64,000 bases of DNA from UHGV virus genome UHGV-0066004; one strand, written 5' to 3'. How positions within the stretch are numbered: position 1 is the stretch's first letter; every line of letters begins with the position of its first letter. Position numbers and translations under genes: made by a program. The notes under the pieces were generated by a model. It was not told the DNA's origin. It saw nothing but the letters and a program-made list of their open reading frames with translations, and did no database searches. Below, piece after piece: positions 2,917 to 10,070 of this stretch. The stretch is from a virus.

Positions 2917-3117
2917 TTATTCAGAGTCTGTAGCAGTCTCTTCTTTCTTAACTTCGAACTTTGCATCAACAGCATCAAGAAGTGCATCCATAGATGCTTC
3001 TTTAATATCAATGCCTGTTGCTACAGATAATCTGTCTGCAATTGCCATGATAGTATTCTGCATAAATTCTAGCTTCTTGTTAGCTTCATAAAGTTCTTTA
3101 TAAACGGTCTCGCTCAT
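2917..3117 (-). CDS. small acidic protein upstream of terL (function unknown)
   Basis: 66-aa ORF, GGAGAA SD 7 nt upstream, 6-nt gap to terL. Confidence 0.5.
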   Translation of the reverse strand: MSETVYKELYEANKKLEFMQNTIMAIADRLSVATGIDIKEASMDALLDAVDAKFEVKKEETATDSE

Positions 3118-3242
3118 TATGTTTTCTCCAAATAATTAACCATGTTTCCCCTTAAAAAAGACGGCACAGAGACCGTCAAGGAGAAACCACAATGTACGTC
3201 AGAGACATACTGTATAAGGCTTCCTATAAAGTATAACTCTGT

Positions 3243-3302
3243 AAAAAAGCCCTGTCTAAAAATACTCTTCGGTAGCGAAAGGAAGAATACTTATAGCAGG
3301 GC
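3243..3302 (-). terminator. putative intrinsic terminator after tRNA cluster
   Basis: Minus strand GCCCTG...CAGGGC stem followed by TTTTTT; long imperfect loop. Confidence 0.35.
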
Positions 3303-3342
3303 ATTATTATTATTATTTTAATTGAGAGAGAGTAAAATAAAT

Positions 3343-3418
3343 TGGAGAATCCGAAGGGACTCGAACCCTTATAAACCTGTTTTGCAGACAGGCACATAGC
3401 CATTTCTGTCACGGATTC
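3343..3418 (-). tRNA. tRNA-Cys(GCA)
   Basis: T-arm GGGTTCGAGTCCC, 7-bp acceptor pairing GAATCCG/CGGATTC, anticodon loop CTGCAAA, encoded CCA; hand-folded. Confidence 0.65.
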
Positions 3419-3422
3419 AAAT

Positions 3423-3515
3423 TGGAGGAAGATACCAGACTTGAACTGGTACACCGATTTCTCAGCTACTGGCAGTTTAGCAAACTGCTCCCTTACCTTT
3501 TAGGGTTAATCTTCC
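3423..3515 (-). tRNA. tRNA-Ser(GCT), type II
   Basis: 93 nt, long variable arm, T-arm CCAGTTCAAGTCTGG, acceptor GGAAGAT/ATCTTCC, loop TTGCTAA. Confidence 0.6.
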
Positions 3516-3517
3516 AT

Positions 3518-4252
3518 TTATTTCTGTAATGCGTTCTTCATTTCTGGTGTTGCAATAGTGTCAATTACACCAGTTTTACAAGCATCATCAAACCAGTCTG
3601 GTAAGATACCTGCTAAGAACCCATTGATATTCGTTTTAAGGTACTCTGCAATAAGGGCAGCTTCTTCTTCAATCATCTGCACAACTTCATCTGCATAAGC
3701 TGTAATCTTTGAGATACCTTCATTAATCTTACTGACAGCTTGGTTAGCTAAATCAGAAACAGTATCAAGACCCTTGTCAATAGCGTCTTGTAAGTCACTT
3801 AATACATCGTTAACACTCTCTAGTGTACTGTTAATCGTATCAATAGCTTTTTGACCATATTCTGTAGCAACACCCATAATACCACTGAACGGTGTACAAC
3901 CAACTTGTTCTCCTGCTGCACCCATAACATTGGAATATCCCTTTGCTACCTGCATACGTGATGAAAACTCATCAATAGATTTTTGACCGTAGTCTGTCAG
4001 GGTCTTAGTAGTTGCTGTAGTGCTTGTAAGGCTTGTTGTAAAGCTGTTTAGAAGGACTGTTGTAAGTCCAGCAGCAACAAGCTTATCCTTTACTGTAGGG
4101 TCTGATACAGAGCTAATAGAGCTTACAAGTGATGTAGAGGCAGCTACGGTTCCACCGAGAACTGCTGCACCAGTAATAAGGGGGTTAGAAAACCCTTTAC
4201 CGGTTTTTAAGAGATTGAAAATCTCCTTACCTTGTTCTGTCATCTCTTTCAT
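3518..4252 (-). CDS. Ser/Thr-rich hypothetical protein inside tRNA cluster
   Basis: ORF in track; start trimmed to ATG at 4252 (AAAGGTG SD) because the upstream part overlaps tRNA-Phe. Confidence 0.45.
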   Translation of the reverse strand: MKEMTEQGKEIFNLLKTGKGFSNPLITGAAVLGGTVAASTSLVSSISSVSDPTVKDKLVAAGLTTVLLNSFTTSLTSTTATTKTLTDYGQKSIDEFSSRMQVAKGYSNVMGAAGEQVGCTPFSGIMGVATEYGQKAIDTINSTLESVNDVLSDLQDAIDKGLDTVSDLANQAVSKINEGISKITAYADEVVQMIEEEAALIAEYLKTNINGFLAGILPDWFDDACKTGVIDTIATPEMKNALQK

Positions 4253-4268
4253 TAAGCACCTTTGAAAT

Positions 4269-4345
4269 TGGTAGTCCAGTGGGATTTGAACCCTCTTCTC
4301 ATGTTTTTCAGACACGCGCTTTAACCATATAAGCTACTTGGACTA
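4269..4345 (-). tRNA. tRNA-Phe(GAA)
   Basis: T-arm GGGTTCAAATCCC, acceptor TAGTCCA/TGGACTA, loop CTGAAAA. Confidence 0.6.
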
Positions 4346-4350
4346 TAAAT

Positions 4351-4426
4351 TGGGGTGACCTACGGGATTTGAACCCGTATAGACCATGTTCACAGCATGG
4401 GTCATTACCGTTTATGATAAGGCCAC
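4351..4426 (-). tRNA. tRNA-His(GTG)
   Basis: T-arm ACGGGTTCAAATCCCGT, loop CTGTGAA, encoded CCA. Confidence 0.65.
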
Positions 4427-4457
4427 ATTTAAGGACTCTCGTAAGAATCCTTAGAAG

Positions 4458-4533
4458 TGGCAGCGGCATAAGGATTTGAACCTTAATAAGACAGCTTCAG
4501 AGACTGCTGCATTGCCAGTTATGCTATGCCGCT
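4458..4533 (-). tRNA. tRNA-Gln(CTG)
   Basis: T-arm TAAGGTTCAAATCCTTA, acceptor AGCGGCA/TGCCGCT, loop CTCTGAA. Confidence 0.55.
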
Positions 4534-4538
4534 AAATT

Positions 4539-4617
4539 TGGTACTCCATATCGGATTCGAACCGATACATAACACAGATTTTAAGTCTGGCCTCTCTGCC
4601 AATTGGAGTAATGGAGC
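4539..4617 (-). tRNA. tRNA-Leu-like (anticodon TAA?), atypical
   Basis: Perfect T-arm ATCGGTTCGAATCCGAT, discriminator A, Leu-type D-loop AATTGGCAGAG, loop CTTAAAA, but no long variable arm in my fold. Confidence 0.35.
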
Positions 4618-4619
4618 AT

Positions 4620-4695
4620 TGGCGGGGGATGTTGGAATTGAACCAACTTCTTCGATTTCAAAGACCGAGGTTTTAACCTTGTAAACTAATCCCCT
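4620..4695 (-). tRNA. tRNA-Gln(TTG)
   Basis: T-arm GTTGGTTCAATTCCAAC, loop CTTTGAA, encoded CCA. Confidence 0.55.
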
Positions 4696-4703
4696 TTAAA
4701 TCT

Positions 4704-5261
4704 TTACTTTCTCAGTGGATGAATAAAGAATGCCAACATAACTCTTTCCCTTGAGAATGCTCTTTCTTCTGGGACAACACTTTTTAGTTTCCATCCAATA
4801 TAAATTCTCCAGTAAAATTGTTTACCAAAGATTTTAATTGATGGGATAAAAGCGAATAATCCCCAAGCATTACTGTTCCACATTAGGAGATAACCTGTCT
4901 GATTATCTTCAGGGTCAGAACTTACGTTGATATTACCTTTCCACTTAGTAACATCTTTTACATCTCTTCCTAATACATGGTAAGAGAAGTTATAAGCTTT
5001 GTTTCTCCAGAGCCATCCGACTCTTTGCATGTAGACACCTAGTTTACCAATCCATCTGATATTAGCCCATCTTTTAACGTGACCTTCATCACCATCAATT
5101 GGGTTGTCATATGTCTCCATCCATCTGAACCCGAAAGGTAAGTGTCCTTTCTTCTCACTGTAGAATGGAACTACGAAAGGTGCTAAGATAACTGCTAGTA
5201 TTGCTGCAAGTGGTTCTAGCAAAGCTAAGAAAATCCATGAAGCATATTTTAAGTATCTCAT
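4704..5261 (-). CDS. membrane protein (hydrophobic N-terminus), function unknown
   Basis: 185-aa ORF between tRNA sub-clusters; N-terminal TM-like segment. Confidence 0.5.
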   Translation of the reverse strand: MRYLKYASWIFLALLEPLAAILAVILAPFVVPFYSEKKGHLPFGFRWMETYDNPIDGDEGHVKRWANIRWIGKLGVYMQRVGWLWRNKAYNFSYHVLGRDVKDVTKWKGNINVSSDPEDNQTGYLLMWNSNAWGLFAFIPSIKIFGKQFYWRIYIGWKLKSVVPEERAFSRERVMLAFFIHPLRK

Positions 5262-5500
5262 TGTCTAACCCTCGTAAGGAGGTAAGCATTATTACTTGTT
5301 TCTGAGCTTTCTGGTAACATTGTCTCAAAATTGACACTTTTAAGTTGTCTTCCACCAAAGCAATGACCAATAAATCTTTCTACTTTTATTGGGTCGCATT
5401 CCCATCCGACTTTTAAGAAAATGTGGGTATCTATAGTGGGAACCCTTACAAACTCAATACTATTGGGATTTTCATGTTCAACGACGATTAATGTTTGCAT
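5258..5500 (-). CDS. hypothetical protein
   Basis: 80-aa ORF with ATGA-type overlap onto downstream gene. Confidence 0.4.
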   Translation of the reverse strand: MQTLIVVEHENPNSIEFVRVPTIDTHIFLKVGWECDPIKVERFIGHCFGGRQLKSVNFETMLPESSETSNNAYLLTRVRQ

Positions 5501-5518
5501 AAATTCCTCTTGCTTATC

Positions 5519-5594
5519 TGGCGCAGGATAAGGGATTCGAACCCCTATTAACAGTTTCGTAGACTGTTGCTCTATCCATTTGAACTAATCCTGC
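5519..5594 (-). tRNA. tRNA-Arg(ACG)
   Basis: T-arm GGGGTTCGAATCCCT, acceptor GCAGGAT/ATCCTGC, loop CTACGAA. Confidence 0.65.
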
Positions 5595-5599
5595 AAAAT

Positions 5600-5677
5600 T
5601 GGTGTTCCAAGACGGATTCGAACCGTCACTAATACAAGGTTTGAGCTTGCATCCTCTGCCAATTGGGATACTGGAAC
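5600..5677 (-). tRNA. tRNA-Leu-like (anticodon CAA?), atypical
   Basis: T-arm GACGGTTCGAATCCGTC, D-loop CAATTGGCAGAG, loop CTCAAAC, discriminator A; short variable arm. Confidence 0.35.
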
Positions 5678-5678
5678 A

Positions 5679-5753
5679 TGGTACTCACTAAAGGACTTGA
5701 ACCTTTTTCTTCATCTTGTAAGGGTGGTGTTTTACCATATAAACTAAGCGAGT
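5679..5753 (-). tRNA. tRNA-like gene with disrupted anticodon stem (possible pseudo-tRNA)
   Basis: Good acceptor, D-arm GTTTATATGGTAAAAC and T-arm AAAGGTTCAAGTCCTTT, but I cannot pair an anticodon stem. Confidence 0.3.
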
Positions 5754-5848
5754 GTGAAAGAGGTCTGAAGTTGTGCCGCTAACTCAACTCCGTGGAATTT
5801 GTTACGGTCTTCAGTTGACACCAGCGGTCTTTCACTTGACCTCTGAAT

Positions 5849-5925
5849 TGGTGCTGCTCACAGGACTCGAACCCGCATTTCCATCCTTACAAGGGATGTG
5901 TAATAGCCAATTATACGAAAGCAGC
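5849..5925 (-). tRNA. tRNA-Thr(TGT)
   Basis: T-arm GCGGGTTCGAGTCCTGT, anticodon stem CATCC/GGATG, loop CTTGTAA. Confidence 0.65.
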
Positions 5926-5932
5926 ATTAATT

Positions 5933-6007
5933 TGGAGCATCCAGAGGGAATCGAACCCTCAACCTCAGTTTGGAAGACTGTAATTTTCCCGTTTAAACTA
6001 TGGATGC
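5933..6007 (-). tRNA. tRNA-Gly(TCC)
   Basis: T-arm GAGGGTTCGATTCCCTC, acceptor GCATCCA/TGGATGC, loop CTTCCAA. Confidence 0.6.
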
Positions 6008-6013
6008 ACTAAT

Positions 6014-6089
6014 TGGTGGAGAAGCAGGGAATTGAACCCTGTACTTAAGTTTGCAAAACTTATGTTTTAACCATGTAAACTACATCCCC
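6014..6089 (-). tRNA. tRNA-Ala(TGC)
   Basis: T-arm CAGGGTTCAATTCCCTG, anticodon stem TAAGT/ACTTA, loop TTTGCAA. Confidence 0.6.
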
Positions 6090-6095
6090 AATGTA

Positions 6096-6171
6096 TGGTA
6101 CAGGTGGAGGGAATTGAACCCATCGTCTTACTGATTAAGAGTCAGCCGCATAACCATTTTGCTACACCTGC
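6096..6171 (-). tRNA. tRNA-Lys(CTT)
   Basis: T-arm GGGTTCAATTCCC, loop CTCTTAA; paralogous to the Lys(TTT) gene at 7323. Confidence 0.55.
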
Positions 6172-6178
6172 ATTAATT

Positions 6179-6256
6179 TGGTAGGAGACAAGGGATTCGA
6201 ACCCTCAAACACCAACTTCTAAGGATGGTAGGTTTACCAATTACCGTCAATCTCCC
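6179..6256 (-). tRNA. tRNA-Leu-like (anticodon TAG?), atypical
   Basis: T-arm GAGGGTTCGAATCCCTT, D-loop TAATTGGTAAA, loop CTTAGAA, discriminator A; short variable arm. Confidence 0.35.
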
Positions 6257-6512
6257 ATTAAATCTTTTTAGAGAACTTCTAAGAACCTAAGCAACAAGGT
6301 TCCACAACAAGCTGTAATAACCTTAGAAGCCCTCTAAAAAGACCTAAAAAGGTCTTTGCATAGTCTTGTTTAATCCGGTGACTAGAACCTTTGGAGAGCT
6401 TGATATTATCTCTTCTCCGTGACACATACTAGGTGCTTTACTGTGCTTGTACGACAATACACGAGGGATACCAAAGCAACATCCGAATGAAGCTTGGCTT
6501 TAAACCTTATTA

Positions 6513-6602
6513 GGCGGTAAGTAAAGGAGTCGAACCCTCACCGTATCTCTACAGTGGCAACTGTTTTCAAGACAGTTTGGCTACCATTAGCCGCTACCTA
6601 CC
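6513..6602 (-). tRNA. tRNA-Ser(TGA), type II
   Basis: 90 nt, T-arm GAGGGTTCGACTCC, anticodon stem ACTGT/ACAGT, loop CTTGAAA, long variable arm. Confidence 0.6.
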
Positions 6603-6615
6603 CCTAATAAGACTT

Positions 6616-6698
6616 TGGCATGGGACGGAGGAGTTGAACCCCTTTGAAACGGTTTTGGAGGCCGTTGCTCATGCCTTAGAGTCTTAACATCGTCCCAT
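6616..6698 (-). tRNA. tRNA-like, 83 nt, anticodon unresolved
   Basis: Perfect acceptor ATGGGAC/GTCCCAT and T-arm GGGGTTCAACTCC; internal AACGG/CCGTT hairpin with 9-nt loop; cannot assign anticodon. Confidence 0.3.
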
Positions 6699-6840
6699 AT
6701 TATAATTCGAAGCTTACCGTATTATCTCAACACTGTAAAGCCCCTTCTCAGATTATTTACATGTTCTGGAAAACATGAGATACAGACCACCTCCCTACAG
6801 GAAGACCCGCTTAGGTCGTCTAAGTAATCTGCTAACTAAT

Positions 6841-6917
6841 TGGCACACCCTACAGGATTCGAACCTGTAACTAACGATTTAGAAGACCGTTGCTCTATCC
6901 AATTGAACTAAGGGTGC
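6841..6917 (-). tRNA. tRNA-Arg(TCT)
   Basis: T-arm ACAGGTTCGAATCCTGT, loop CTTCTAA, encoded CCA. Confidence 0.65.
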
Positions 6918-7164
6918 ATTAATCTTTAAAGACTCTCTTAGAAAGCCCTTAAAGATGCCCACCTTATTAATCATACCGTGGGCTAGTACGCCAAATTCTT
7001 TGATGAGGGATTGGAAGACCTCACTGGTGTTTAGCCTATCAAGCTACTGCCAGAAAAACATTGTCGTTTGCATTTATTTTAAATTTGCAAAATAGACGCT
7101 ACGCAACGAAAACTAAGGTTACTATAAAGTAGTCACATCTCAATGTCAACAACTTTATTGAAAT

Positions 7165-7240
7165 TGGTACTGGTAGGTGGAATCGAACCACCGATGTTCC
7201 CTTATCAGGGGAGTGTTATAACCTTCTTAACTATACCAGC
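7165..7240 (-). tRNA. tRNA-Ile(GAT)
   Basis: T-arm GGTGGTTCGATTCCACC, loop CTGATAA. Confidence 0.6.
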
Positions 7241-7241
7241 T

Positions 7242-7318
7242 TGGAGGTTCAGATGGGAATCGAACCCACATTCATAGGGCTTATGAGACCCTTGCATTAC
7301 CTTATCTGCGACTGAACC
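7242..7318 (-). tRNA. tRNA-Met(CAT), elongator-like
   Basis: T-arm TGGGTTCGATTCCCA, loop CTCATAA, G1-C72 paired. Confidence 0.6.
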
Positions 7319-7322
7319 ATAT

Positions 7323-7398
7323 TGGTAGAAGTGGAGGGATTCGAACCCATCGCCTGTCAGATTAAAAGTCTGCTGCATCACCATTCTGCTACACTTCC
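7323..7398 (-). tRNA. tRNA-Lys(TTT)
   Basis: T-arm GGGTTCGAATCCC, loop CTTTTAA. Confidence 0.55.
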
Positions 7399-7403
7399 AT
7401 TAA

Positions 7404-7546
7404 ATTATCTTTGTAGATAAGCTACCCAGACTTGCTTAAGGTCTGTAGCGATGTGCCTTGTTGGGTTTAAATCTAGAATTTACCCTTTCACCCTTTGTGG
7501 TCGCATACTCACAGGTAAGCTTAATAACTTATCTACAAAGATAATT
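7404..7546. repeat. pair of inverted 18-bp hairpin elements (TTATCTTTGTAGATAA / TTATCTACAAAGATAA) about 107 bp apart
   Basis: Exact reverse-complement arms at 7404-7421 and 7529-7546, each arm itself a 5-bp stem hairpin. Confidence 0.7.
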
Positions 7547-7589
7547 ACCAGACCGTTGTTTATCATCTTAAGTGCTACCATTACACCAA

Positions 7590-7680
7590 CTCGACATCTG
7601 CCGAGTGAAGGAATCGAACCTTCGCCTTTTCTTTACCGGAGAAATAGATTGTTTAAGTTTTGCTGTAAACGGTCTTCTGT
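7590..7680 (-). pseudogene. tRNA fragment or pseudo-tRNA (T-arm only)
   Basis: Perfect T-arm GAAGGTTCGATTCCTTC with acceptor-like 3' strand but no matching 5' acceptor strand and no CCA. Confidence 0.3.
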
Positions 7681-7826
7681 AAATTTGTTGAGCCAGACCA
7701 AGTTTAAATTTTCAAAATTAAATTGGCTTGAAATTTCATACGTTCTTGCTGTATTTGGTCTTCTGCTCCTTTAAAGGATACTCGTAAGGACCCTTTAAGG
7801 GAGGGGCTAAATAGCCCTCTCAAAAT

Positions 7827-7904
7827 TGGCGGTTACGAAGGGATTTGAACCCTCATCATCTCCCGTGACAGGGGAGTATTTTAACCAAATTAAACTACAT
7901 AACC
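7827..7904 (-). tRNA. tRNA-Asp(GTC)
   Basis: T-arm GAGGGTTCAAATCCCTT, anticodon stem CTCCC/GGGAG, loop CTGTCAC. Confidence 0.65.
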
Positions 7905-7909
7905 TTTAT

Positions 7910-7997
7910 TGGTGTGCCGTGTAGGAGTCGAACCTACCGAGTCTCAATGACAAGGGATTTACAGTCCCCACCGCTACCATCTACGGGATAACGACAC
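7910..7997 (-). tRNA. tRNA-Tyr(GTA), type II
   Basis: 88 nt, T-arm GTAGGTTCGACTCCTAC, loop CTGTAAA, long variable arm. Confidence 0.6.
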
Positions 7998-8006
7998 ATT
8001 TAAATT

Positions 8007-8083
8007 TGGCGGTTAGTCAGGGATTCGAACCCTGTGCCATTCGCTTAACAGGCGACCGCACATACCTTATATGCTTCCTAACC
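8007..8083 (-). tRNA. tRNA-Asn(GTT)
   Basis: T-arm CAGGGTTCGAATCCCTG, loop CTGTTAA. Confidence 0.55.
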
Positions 8084-8160
8084 TTAATACATTGCCAGAC
8101 CGTGTTTTTTCTTTTATCCGCAAAAAGTATTTTGTTGCTGAATACGGTCTTCTGCAAAAT

Positions 8161-8237
8161 TGGAGGCGGGTGCAGGAGTCGAACCTGCCGATACCATGCT
8201 AATGAGACATGTGAGACGCCCTTTCTCTATACCCGCA
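8161..8237 (-). tRNA. tRNA with CAT anticodon (Met, fMet or Ile2)
   Basis: T-arm GCAGGTTCGACTCCTGC, loop CTCATTA, unpaired 1-72 position. Confidence 0.45.
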
Positions 8238-8327
8238 ATTCTCAATGACCAGACCAAATATCTTCTTTGTCCGATTTCGTGTCAGATGAGTAGATTAAGT
8301 TTGCTGTAATTGGTCTTCTGTCAAAAC

Positions 8328-8405
8328 TGGCGTTCCAGAAGGGATTTGAACCCTCAGATATCCACTTTGAAAGAGTGGTGACTTTACCATTTTGTCTACT
8401 GGAAC
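8328..8405 (-). tRNA. tRNA-Glu(TTC)
   Basis: T-arm GAGGGTTCAAATCCCTT, anticodon stem CCACT/AGTGG, loop CTTTCAA. Confidence 0.65.
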
Positions 8406-8412
8406 ATTAATT

Positions 8413-8489
8413 TGGTCTCTGTTGGAGGACTTGAACCTCCGGCCTTACCGCCCCAAACGGAACGCTCTACCAAGCTGAGCTAAACAGAG
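8413..8489 (-). tRNA. tRNA-Pro(TGG)
   Basis: Canonical D-arm GCTCAGCTTGGTAGAGC, T-arm GGAGGTTCAAGTCCTCC, loop TTTGGGG. Confidence 0.6.
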
Positions 8490-8604
8490 ATAAACTTTTC
8501 AAACTCTATGTAACCACTTTAACATTATTTTTTAGTGGTTGTCAAGAACTTTTTTAAAATATTTTTCAGTATCTTAGAAAAGCTCTCGTTTCGTTTCTAT
8601 GTAG

Positions 8605-8640
8605 AACATATTAAAGGGTATCAAACACATTGTCAATACC
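8605..8640 (-). promoter_or_regulatory. sigma70-type promoter reading into tRNA cluster (TTGACA-N17-TAATAT)
   Basis: Minus strand: TTGACA, 17-bp spacer, TAATAT; a second TTGACA-N18-TAAAGT lies about 90 bp downstream. Confidence 0.6.
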
Positions 8641-8654
8641 CTTTTTAAAACTTT

Positions 8655-10070
8655 TTACCAGATATAACGGTCAATCATTACTGCTTTGAGCATTACACTG
8701 ATTGGGTCAAACTTCTCACCACCAAGCAGAGCTTTTAAAGTAGCTGGAGAAAAACCAGATACCATTGCTACACCGTTATCCTTAACAGACACTTCGCAAG
8801 TACCATTACGGTTTGCTAAGTACCAGAATACCAGTTGAGGCATTTCGTATCCAGCTTTTTTGTACTTACTCTGAATTGCTTCAAAGTTTGTACGACCGTT
8901 AGCTCCATCAACCTGATTGAACTCCATATCGGAGAAGATGATAAGCTTACTTGGCATATCTTTCTGAGTCAAGTTGTTTCTTTTACCTGTTTCAAGAATA
9001 CGGTCAAAAGCTGCTTGTAAGTTAGTTGAGCCATATTCAACGTGTCGCATCACCTGACGATGACGGTTTCGTAAATCACCACTCAGTTCGATGAAGTGAG
9101 GGTTTGTTGAATAAACCATCAACTCATTCTTAAAGCAACCTGTATTACGTTCTGCTACATACAATGCAAGTGAAACACCAATATCAAGAGCAGTAATTGA
9201 ACCAAAATTCACCCAAGACATTGAGCTTGAAACATCAGACATACACAAGATGTTTTCACCCTCTGCCATCCAGTTTGGTAGTGCTTTCCACTGCTCATTA
9301 GCAACATCTGCATTACCATACTTAACAGATTTAATTACATCGTATGGGTAAACAGCACCAGCATTAATCTTAGTCTCACCCTTTGATAAGGACTCGATGT
9401 AAGCTTTGTAGCGTTCTCCATCTTTGCGGTTAAACAGTTTTTGGTAACGTGCAGCAGCAAGTGAAGGAATCTTACTGTAGTCAATCTTACCAAACTCATT
9501 AGCAGAGATTTTTTGCTCAACTGTATCAGATAGTGCAGACAACAGTGTGCGGTACTCTTTCTCACTCAAGTTGGCAAACTTGCAGAAACGTTTTACAAAC
9601 TGCTTATGACGTGGTTTGACTCGTGGTAACCACTTAGCCGCCAAACCTGCTGTTGCAGGGTCTAGTAATGCTGCTTCTAGATGTTTGAAGGCATCTGTCT
9701 CGAAACAAGTACCTACGAAGATTTTGAAGTCATCAAAACGACCAAGTTCTGCAATCTTATCCATAATGCGAAGAACCTGCGTAGGCTCTAAAACTTTGTC
9801 TTCAATCGCTTGAAGTAAAACAGTTCTGAAGGCTTTACGCTCACCCATACCTTCTCGTACATCTCGCATATGAAGCAAAATACGAACTGCAACATCAACA
9901 TCCTCACGCAAAGCTTTGTAGAACAGGTCTGGTAAGATTTCTACGTTGCTACGGCTTGAACCAGCAGCTTTGTAAAAGTCTACAAGAGCAGACATTGATG
10001 AAGTATGGTTTACAGCACCATTTTCAGTTCGACCTGCATGAAGGTGCGCATGTTTAAATAATTCGCTCAT
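8655..10070 (-). CDS. von Willebrand factor A (vWA) domain protein, possibly TROVE/Ro-like
   Basis: 471-aa ORF; C-terminal MIDAS-type DxSxS (DVSSSM) and hydrophobic beta strands (LIIFSDMEF); TROVE assignment is a guess. Confidence 0.55.
   Translation of the reverse strand: MSELFKHAHLHAGRTENGAVNHTSSMSALVDFYKAAGSSRSNVEILPDLFYKALREDVDVAVRILLHMRDVREGMGERKAFRTVLLQAIEDKVLEPTQVLRIMDKIAELGRFDDFKIFVGTCFETDAFKHLEAALLDPATAGLAAKWLPRVKPRHKQFVKRFCKFANLSEKEYRTLLSALSDTVEQKISANEFGKIDYSKIPSLAAARYQKLFNRKDGERYKAYIESLSKGETKINAGAVYPYDVIKSVKYGNADVANEQWKALPNWMAEGENILCMSDVSSSMSWVNFGSITALDIGVSLALYVAERNTGCFKNELMVYSTNPHFIELSGDLRNRHRQVMRHVEYGSTNLQAAFDRILETGKRNNLTQKDMPSKLIIFSDMEFNQVDGANGRTNFEAIQSKYKKAGYEMPQLVFWYLANRNGTCEVSVKDNGVAMVSGFSPATLKALLGGEKFDPISVMLKAVMIDRYIW

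Follow-up and report, generated by a model that had tools for sequence, protein, structure and literature searches.

Structured spacer RNAs between the tRNA genes of a Felix O1-like phage as probable Y RNA equivalents of a Ro60-like protein

YrlA RNA is known in bacteria and phages, is encoded beside Ro60, and has a stem made by both ends of the RNA; in one species it is cleaved by RNase P and gains a CCA (Chen et al. 2014, PMC4201824). YrlA and YrlB accompany Rsr (the Ro60 protein) in, for example, Salmonella Typhimurium, Mycobacterium smegmatis and mycobacteriophages, and the canonical Ro-binding motif is GNCGAAN0-1G in bacteria, where it is the one proposed for Rsr, and GGUCCGA in vertebrates (Chen et al. 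2014, PMC4201824). The Ro60 of Thermus phage phiLo binds two neighbouring Yrl RNAs (Yrl1 and Yrl2), which lie upstream of the gene and had been picked out by their CGAA motif, as well as the host PNPase, whose activity it attenuates (Hu et al. 2025, PMC12135203). For gp130 of the Felixounavirus Bas63, a Ro60-like structure, a position directly upstream of a stretch of tRNA genes and an ability to counter the ppl defence have been described; the report names no RNA and speculates that "some tRNA genes are possibly Y RNAs" (PhageMaP preprint, PMC11482910). We analyzed UHGV virus genome UHGV-0066004 over a stretch of 64,000 nucleotides (the 64-kb window), which comes from a Felix O1-like phage (Felixounavirus). 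Within its tRNA array are four structured units, herein A to D, and the array is immediately preceded, on the same strand, by the gene of a Ro60-like protein. The units belong to an RNA family with a conserved closing stem and a CAGCAA hexamer, which shows a tight, strand-specific linkage to the gene with the Ro60 fold. The Ro60-like fold was already known from the preprint on the related phage Bas63; the preprint did not point out the RNA partners. We found no paper or GenBank record that identifies the spacer units, and literature searches returned nothing relevant on DUF2828, the family of the protein, and nothing on Ro60 together with Felix O1.

The window has 26 tRNA genes by ARAGORN, which span positions 3343-8489 and are on the minus strand throughout. 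A first-pass annotation, made from the letters alone, had noted a recurrent spacer motif in this cluster, TTGCTG-N5-GGTCTTCTG on the + strand. Because all the tRNA genes are on the minus strand, the RNA sense of the motif is its reverse complement, CAGAAGACC-N5-CAGCAA. The sequence TTGCTGNNNNNGGTCTTCTG is found in four exact copies, all on the + strand (Table 1); with two mismatches tolerated, the mean in shuffled sequence was 0.18, and none of 100 shuffles gave four. The count of four made in the first-pass annotation held, as did three of its coordinates (0-6 nt off). Its first copy was misplaced by about 23 nt, and the span given for it actually contains the CCAGACC of the neighbouring unit. 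The position directly 3' of two tRNA genes was correctly seen: in the sense of the transcript, the copy in unit A begins 7 nt past tRNA-Glu (8328) and that in unit B 6 nt past tRNA-Met (8161). With the exact CAGCAA core, the window contains just these four units, and cores with one mismatch yielded only scattered matches in coding regions. CCAGACC occurs 12 times on both strands of the window, against 4.6 expected. Its + strand sites near the motif (7548, 7693, 8095 and 8249) are each paired with one motif copy in the folds, and on the minus strand GGUCUGG lies 60-132 nt 3' of each CAGAAGACC-N5-CAGCAA. Each copy thus pairs with CCAGACC, as had been proposed, but not in a small hairpin, since the pairing closes a unit of 66-138 nt. 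A scan of IMG/VR with the exact motif (120 loci) found multiple copies together with the GGTCTGG partner only in Felixounavirus-sized contigs; single matches elsewhere were treated as chance, because the partner is missing.

The closing architecture is common to all four folds. It consists of an outer helix of 4 bp, a bulged AGA that faces one G, an inner helix of AGACC(+N5)/GGUCU, and the unpaired CAGCAA, at a distance of exactly 10 nt from where the inner helix begins; the 5' strand of the unit is AGAAGACC-N5-CAGCAA. The outer helices are UGAC/GUCA (A), UUGC/GCAA (B), GAGC/GCUC (C) and UUAC/GUAA (D), such that the three variable pairs differ among the units with their complementarity kept (UGA/UCA, UUG/CAA, GAG/CUC and UUA/UAA). 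A structure scanner also picks up units A and D. On the minus strand there is no terminator-like site (a GC-rich hairpin with a U tract) at any motif copy, the only sigma-70 promoter match at the motif is a weak one (9 of 12) inside the cargo of unit A, and ARAGORN calls no tRNA gene in any unit. Several other identities were considered and set aside. A + strand promoter reading of TTGCTG and hammerhead or hepatitis delta virus (HDV)-like cores were unsupported; a kink-turn at the AGA bulge lacked support, there being no tandem G-A on the opposite strand; and so did the archaeal bulge-helix-bulge splice motif, as there is a single 3-nt bulge only and these hosts are not known to have such an endonuclease. 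Two open reading frames (ORFs) on the non-transcribed + strand, one of 107 amino acids (7451-7774) that overlaps units C and D and one of 80 amino acids (8006-8248) that overlaps tRNA genes, are probably spurious; in the GenBank records of some relatives, this part of the array bears "hypothetical protein" features.

Over positions 7000-8700 the window shares 99.6% identity with Salmonella phages FSL SP-010 and SP-012, and 80% or more of this stretch is covered in 238 phage records. All four units recur, with their positions unchanged, in Felixounavirus, Mooglevirus (Sf17, KMM4) and Suspvirus (mistaenkt), where they differ by two-sided changes of pairs or by wobble changes. The outer helix of unit B is UUG/CAA or UUA/UAA among its orthologues, with both sides changed, and an inner-helix variant in relatives has AGGCC opposite GGUCU. 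Yersinia phage P778, whose homologue of the Ro60-like protein is 55% identical, has three units in which the 3-nt bulge (A-N-A), the 10-nt spacing and CAGCAA are all retained and the inner helices are wholly different (GGACUG/CAGUCC, GGAUUC/GAAUCC and GGACUC/GAGUCC). The "tRNA-OTHER" features of phage Si3 proved to be tRNA-Asp and tRNA-Tyr, not the units.

The DUF2828 family comprises 2555 proteins at E ≤1e-5 among the scored candidates, and 589 of 600 matched IMG/VR stretches were confirmed as relatives. Our distant set consisted of 75 phage loci with homologues 38-47% identical to the window protein. Within the 400 nt after the gene, 41 of the 75 loci have CAGCAA, with 59 occurrences where 11.6 would be expected; it ranked second among hexamers by fold enrichment and had the most occurrences of the top-ranked ones. 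The distant consensus reads W-G, five helix bases, N-U-W, CAGCAA, cargo, five helix bases, C-W and G, and the Felix arrangement AGACC...CAGCAA...GGUCU-G is one instance of it. A strict signature (W-G at -10/-9, at least 6 bp in register, and G after the helix) found 95 units in the sense of the gene versus 1 antisense, with 34 units no more than 500 nt downstream of the gene and 27 no more than 500 nt upstream. Among the 47 loci with no tRNA within ~6 kb, 25 have a unit no further than 1 kb from the gene. This fixed-register signature, checked on the antisense strand, replaced two earlier structure scanners, which were dropped because 30-50% of control CAGCAA sites passed them. A control of sites far from the gene on the same strand was invalid, because genuine units also occur upstream of the gene.

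When 29 distant short units were aligned, both-side changes were seen at six of the seven pairs of the helix, which was 99.5% paired, a percentage that is partly by construction because the seeds came from a scanner that requires pairing. The covariation score was 0.93, versus 0.21 for shuffled alignments and no more than 0.21 when the partners were slid; independent controls on these seeds were the antisense strand and the held-out window. A covariance model, R1, was built from the 29 units with zero Ounavirinae sequences. On the 64-kb window, its best three matches were B, A and C, in that order and at full length; apart from these and a partial match to unit D, nothing fell below E 0.3. Among the 75 loci, all 47 matches of R1 at E ≤0.001 were on the gene strand. 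The helix of these distant units covaries. Two further observations concern these loci. Seven of them (L150, L178, L179, L181, L190, L196 and L197) have, ~45-100 nt past the gene, a variant ...GGAAUAAUUG-CAGCAA-AUUUAAAAACU..., followed by a conserved ...GGGUGUAAAGGUGAAAGCCGGGGACCACUCA...; the strict signature missed it because the helix register is shifted by one, and it is probably a further subclass of the family. Two others have a transfer-messenger RNA (tmRNA) ~4.5 kb downstream of the DUF2828 gene (L155, 11822-12176; L156, 12119-12479).

The closing stem encloses cargo of several kinds. The cargo of unit D is a circularly permuted cloverleaf, with the order variable hairpin, T arm, capped acceptor stem and D arm, and with the position of the anticodon loop taken by the closing stem. 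This tRNA-like module has UUCGAUU as its T loop, GG in its D loop and an acceptor stem of 7 bp, and units A-C are without it. One pair of the acceptor stem is changed on both sides in Sf17 and mistaenkt (ACUCGGC/GUCGAGU or ACACGU/GCGUGU). The Rfam tRNA model gave only a partial match on unit D (7606-7656), at 22 bits where the gathering score is 29, and neither ARAGORN nor this model recognises in the units a whole cloverleaf that includes an anticodon loop. The match of R1 to unit D is partial because of the 100-nt cargo. The module of T arm, capped acceptor stem and D arm was seen in at least nine units from seven phages, with differing stem sequences. Unit D has no CCA in the loop that caps its acceptor stem. 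In four distant tRNA-like units this loop begins with N-CCA (ACCA, GCCA, ACCA and CCCA), which would be the expected look of a permuted tRNA gene if cleavage by RNase P exposes a CCA 3' end. Other distant units enclose larger cargo of 170-260 nt, apparently structured, that is closed by the same W-G helix and CAGCAA. At least two types recur, for example ...CUAUGGUG...GGAGGG...GAAGC... and ...GGCAAGCAGAAAAUAAAAUAC..., and these may be large structured RNAs of unrecognised type.

Table 1. Features of the array in the window and of distant units. Positions of the distant units are those of their own loci (L numbers).
Feature	Position	Strand	Description
Motif copy, unit A	8301-8320	+	reverse complement of CAGAAGACC-N5-CAGCAA
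Motif copy, unit B	8135-8154	+	exact match
Motif copy, unit C	7746-7765	+	exact match
Motif copy, unit D	7660-7679	+	exact match; placed at 7683-7707 in the first-pass annotation
Unit A, 78 nt, between tRNA-Glu and tRNA-Met	8246-8323	-	fold z -2.2; R1 match 8247-8319, E 1.5e-5; 5'-UGAC-AGA-AGACCAAUUA-CAGCAA ... small hairpin cargo ... UUGGUCU-G-GUCA-3'
Unit B, 66 nt, between tRNA-Met and tRNA-Asn	8092-8157	-	fold z -2.9; R1 match 8093-8153, E 4.1e-7; 5'-UUGC-AGA-AGACCGUAUU-CAGCAA ... ACGGUCU-G-GCAA-3'
Unit C, 79 nt, downstream of tRNA-Asp	7690-7768	-	fold z -2.2; R1 match 7691-7764, E 4.7e-5; 5'-GAGC-AGA-AGACCAAAUA-CAGCAA ... AU-rich hairpin ... UUGGUCU-G-GCUC-3'
Unit D, 138 nt, permuted tRNA-like cargo	7545-7682	-	fold; partial R1 match, E 0.17; closing stem UUAC-AGA-AGACCGUUUA-CAGCAA ... 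AACGGUCU-G-GUAA
tRNA-like domain of unit D	7567-7657	-	read from sequence and element finder
Connecting stem, unit D		-	CUUAA/UUAAG
Variable-arm hairpin, unit D	7628-7644	-	UUUCU-CCGGUAA-AGAAA
T arm, unit D	7607-7623	-	GAAGG-UUCGAUU-CCUUC
Capped acceptor stem, unit D	7589-7606	-	ACUCGGC-AGAU-GUCGAGU; 7 bp, AGAU cap
D arm, unit D	7572-7586	-	GUGU-AAUGGUA-GCAC
Structured spacer RNA, 149 nt, between unit D and tRNA-Lys	7399-7547	-	fold z -5.85; ~24-bp closing stem
Ro60-like protein gene, 471 aa	8655-10070	-	DUF2828 and DUF7788 (Pfam); PHROG 850 "RNA-binding protein"
Promoter-like site 1	8636-8608	-	TTGACA-17-TAATAT; sigma-70 consensus match only
Promoter-like site 2	8545-8516	-	TTGACA-18-TAAAGT; sigma-70 consensus match only
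Distant N-CCA units	L164 7419-7548; L174 from 7525; L200 7792-7921 and 10481-10610		capping loop begins N-CCA
Distant large-cargo units	L132 4837-5068; L140 625-837; L152 5406-5663; L154 5063-5322; L168 5649-5901; L176 5650-5903; L184 1888-2145; L198 5432-5677		170-260 nt cargo

Counted from the stop codon of the Ro60-like gene, the units lie 330-1100 nt downstream. This gene is present at ≥78% DNA identity in 251 Ounavirinae records, and its product is annotated in phage records as a von Willebrand A (vWFA) protein, an RNA-binding protein or a hypothetical protein. An AlphaFold2 model of the 471-residue protein, based on an alignment of 64 sequences, had a pLDDT of 90.4; a single-sequence model (pLDDT 45) was unusable. 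The top ten matches of the model in a Foldseek search of the PDB were all Ro60 (best E 6e-8, with a query TM-score of 0.64; TM-scores up to 0.65), with structures from Xenopus (2i91, 1yvp), human (9nfa, 9nf8, 9nep) and the Thermus phage phiLo (9l5y, 9kop) among them. These alignments were full-length (512-551 columns), and the next-ranked matches were isolated von Willebrand A (vWA) domains. The motif D279-x-S281-x-S283 is invariant in the 64 homologues and aligns to the Ro60 MIDAS motif DVSASM. According to the model, the product has the Ro60 fold, a ring of HEAT repeats with a von Willebrand A domain that bears the MIDAS, and the likeness is by fold only. NCBIfam gave no match to the protein, and a search of PDB sequences with its sequence alone found nothing. 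Bas63 gp130 is evidently the orthologue, judging by the description in the preprint and by the presence of the gene throughout the subfamily. Both promoter-like sites are upstream of tRNA-Pro, at the head of the array (8516-8636, minus strand). Immediately after the stop codon of the gene there is a 12-bp hairpin (8613-8644, minus strand), which overlaps the -35 element of the first of these sites and may be a terminator/promoter junction.

We consider it likely, on the strength of this linkage and of the folds, that units A-D are small noncoding RNAs and the Y RNA equivalents of the upstream Ro60-like protein, in what would be a variant Ro60/Y RNA system. From it we infer the binding of the protein to the units, the route of their processing and their downstream function. 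The units would be transcribed together with the tRNAs, on the minus strand, from the two promoter-like sites. The closing stem with CAGCAA would be the binding site of the protein, and the fixed 10-nt spacing would bring the hexamer to the same helical face as the start of the helix. The tRNA-processing enzymes would free the units, RNase P by its cleavage at the 5' end of the next tRNA and endo- and exonucleases by trimming after the CCA of the previous one. The protein-bound stem would then shield the released units, and the ribonucleoprotein might act through its cargo on RNA turnover and metabolism, or against defence systems, in analogy to Ro60/Y RNA particles and PNPase. The first-pass annotation had suggested that the motif may be part of small stable RNAs encoded between the tRNAs, and the comparative evidence (covarying helices, strand bias and modular cargo) fits this, with the stability itself a presumption. 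What it had missed is the link to the upstream Ro60-like gene and the permuted tRNA-like domain.

Several results weigh against a Ro60/Y RNA system. Rfam 15, searched at E up to 1 over positions 3000-9000, gave no Y RNA-type match on any unit, and in ten distant loci, at the gathering score, it found nothing but tRNAs. The Ro-binding motifs GNCGAAN0-1G and GGUCCGA are absent from the units, which have CAGCAA instead. Pfam matches the 471-residue protein to DUF2828 and DUF7788 only and not to TROVE (PF05731), and a profile of its family reached Ro60 among PDB sequences at E 0.38 only, so that its link to Ro60 does not reach significance when judged from sequence alone. The strict signature left 23 of the 75 loci without a unit, some of which have a register-shifted variant such as uugCAGCAA, and the nearly complete pairing of the distant helices is discounted by the way in which the seeds were chosen. 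Lastly, gp130 alone counters ppl, whether on a plasmid or in T7 (PMC11482910), and therefore the phage RNAs are not needed for that activity. With these points taken into account, the units are most likely the Y RNA-like partners of a divergent phage Ro60, and they are members of a widespread RNA family that is missing from Rfam.

The alternative that survives best is that the units are mere spacer hairpins that aid the processing of the tRNA precursor, as insulators or as sites for RNase E, RNase P and exonucleases. Two units start 6-7 nt past a tRNA 3' end and stop 12 nt before the next tRNA, and all are within one polycistronic array that has promoter-like sites at its head only, as this explanation would have it. 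It is contradicted, however, because units occur in loci without tRNA, and the 25 of 47 such loci in which the signature adjoins the Ro60-like gene speak equally against the first-pass suggestion of a processing signal, at least as the primary role. An insulator would have no need of an invariant unpaired CAGCAA at a fixed spacing, kept down to ~40% protein identity. The modular cargo, which includes a tRNA mimic, is likewise not what a spacer calls for, and most tRNA junctions in the window, with spacers of 5-9 nt, are without such an element. We regard this explanation as improbable. Somewhat less probable still is that the units are cis-acting operators or structures of the untranslated region that regulate the DUF2828 mRNA, and not independent noncoding RNAs. 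The distant units do concentrate around the gene, at no more than 500 nt to either side and on its strand. In the window, though, the units are 330-1100 nt past the stop codon, and regulation in cis is unlikely there because the promoter-like sites and up to seven tRNAs intervene. Several units per locus with varied cargo, including tRNA mimics with N-CCA loops, also fit RNAs that act in trans better.

It is very unlikely that the units arose from tRNA genes by decay or rearrangement, or are small mobile insertions with terminal inverted repeats (CAGAAGACC...GGTCTGG) which multiplied inside the tRNA cluster, with any selection at the DNA level only. The permuted tRNA halves in unit D, the imperfect inverted repeats at the unit ends and the four paralogous copies within 800 bp could be read in this manner. 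Covariation and strand bias contradict it: changes on both sides maintain the helices across large evolutionary distances, and the bias relative to the gene is 95 to 1 by the signature and 47 to 0 by R1. The units moreover hold orthologous fixed positions in three genera, and the single IMG/VR matches to the motif lack the partner strand and are chance-like. HDV-like theta ribozymes occur 3' of phage tRNAs, and self-cleaving ribozymes of this sort that free tRNA ends would agree with the position of the units and could make the unpaired conserved hexamer catalytic, but we give the idea hardly any credence, as no Rfam 15 ribozyme family matched at E up to 1, the conserved part is a 7-bp helix with a single-stranded hexamer in short units that have no conserved pseudoknot or multi-helix core, and the co-occurrence is with the Ro60-like gene and not with tRNAs.

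The Ro60/Y RNA interpretation supplies exact RNA candidates for a phage Ro60-like protein that was genetically shown to counter a bacterial defence, and whose partners were previously guessed. It describes an RNA family that is absent from Rfam 15 and that accompanies a very large phage protein family, with thousands of homologues; particles of the Ro60/Y RNA type would then be commoner in phages than searches for the TROVE domain indicate. The spacers of phage tRNA arrays can also carry unannotated functional RNAs, and the + strand ORF 7451-7774 is one candidate for a "hypothetical protein" annotation in such a place. A bolder extension, which we offer tentatively and think the less likely outcome, is that DUF2828 proteins and "CAGCAA-stem" RNAs make up a widespread, undescribed phage branch of Ro60/Y RNA particles, in which a single protein-binding stem would display interchangeable cargo. 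In Felix O1-like phages the particles would be made from inside the array by the machinery of tRNA maturation, and their role might be that of decoys, sensors or repair platforms in the face of host defences aimed at tRNA or RNA. If this holds, the cargo would range from small loops and permuted tRNA mimics to structured RNAs of 170-260 nt, and RNase P could turn the N-CCA mimics into two-piece, possibly chargeable look-alikes of tRNA.

The array contains other structures. The 149-nt spacer RNA between unit D and tRNA-Lys has orthologues in Sf17 and mistaenkt with a like fold and other stem sequences (z -5.1 and -4.6). It includes a hairpin AGAC-CUUAAGCAA-GUCU, in Sf17 CAAACC-CUUUAGCAA-GGUUUG, that resembles a cargo-less, degenerate mini-unit and is possibly related to the unit family; R1 gives no match to it. 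Between tRNA-Asp and unit C are two more stable hairpins (7766-7826, minus strand), GAGAGGGCUAUUUAGCCCCUC and CCUUAAAGGGUCC...GGAUCCUUUAAAGG, with z -2.7. The tRNA-Met(CAU) that is flanked by units A and B (8161-8237, minus strand) is an ARAGORN call with a cloverleaf as its minimum-energy fold; it has no Rfam tRNA match even at E up to 1, and the other 25 tRNAs match the tRNA or tRNA-Sec models.

How the locus compares with the described systems can now be stated. Circularly permuted tRNA genes occur in the red alga Cyanidioschyzon merolae, and two-piece tmRNA is a further parallel. Unit D resembles them in that its 3' half precedes its 5' half, joined across the acceptor stem, and some distant units share the N-CCA at the start of the joining loop. 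It differs in having the closing stem and CAGCAA where the anticodon loop would be, in lacking a bulge-helix-bulge motif, and in receiving no tRNA or tmRNA call from ARAGORN or Rfam. The likeness to YrlA and YrlB extends to the size of the units (~60-140 nt), the adjoining Ro60-type gene, the several RNAs per locus, and the pairing of the 5' and 3' ends into a stem that bears a conserved motif. Unit D, with its order of variable region, T arm, capped acceptor stem and D arm, is akin to YrlA, whereas units A-C, with simple cargo, are akin to YrlB. The motif itself is different, with CAGCAA 10 nt after the start of the W-G helix and C-W-G on the 3' strand. Different too are the protein, which is a DUF2828/DUF7788 protein and a Ro60 by fold, not by the TROVE family of Pfam, and the setting of the units, which are inside a tRNA array and not free-standing, and match no Rfam model. 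The phiLo system, similarly, places a phage Ro60 homologue beside Y RNA-like RNAs, and its structures 9l5y and 9kop are among the best fold matches of the window protein; the phiLo Ro60 is, in contrast, a recognisable TROVE protein, and the RNAs of the window carry another signature and reside among tRNAs. In the case of Bas63, the difference is in where the RNA partners are sought: the candidates presented here are unannotated spacers, rather than the annotated tRNAs.

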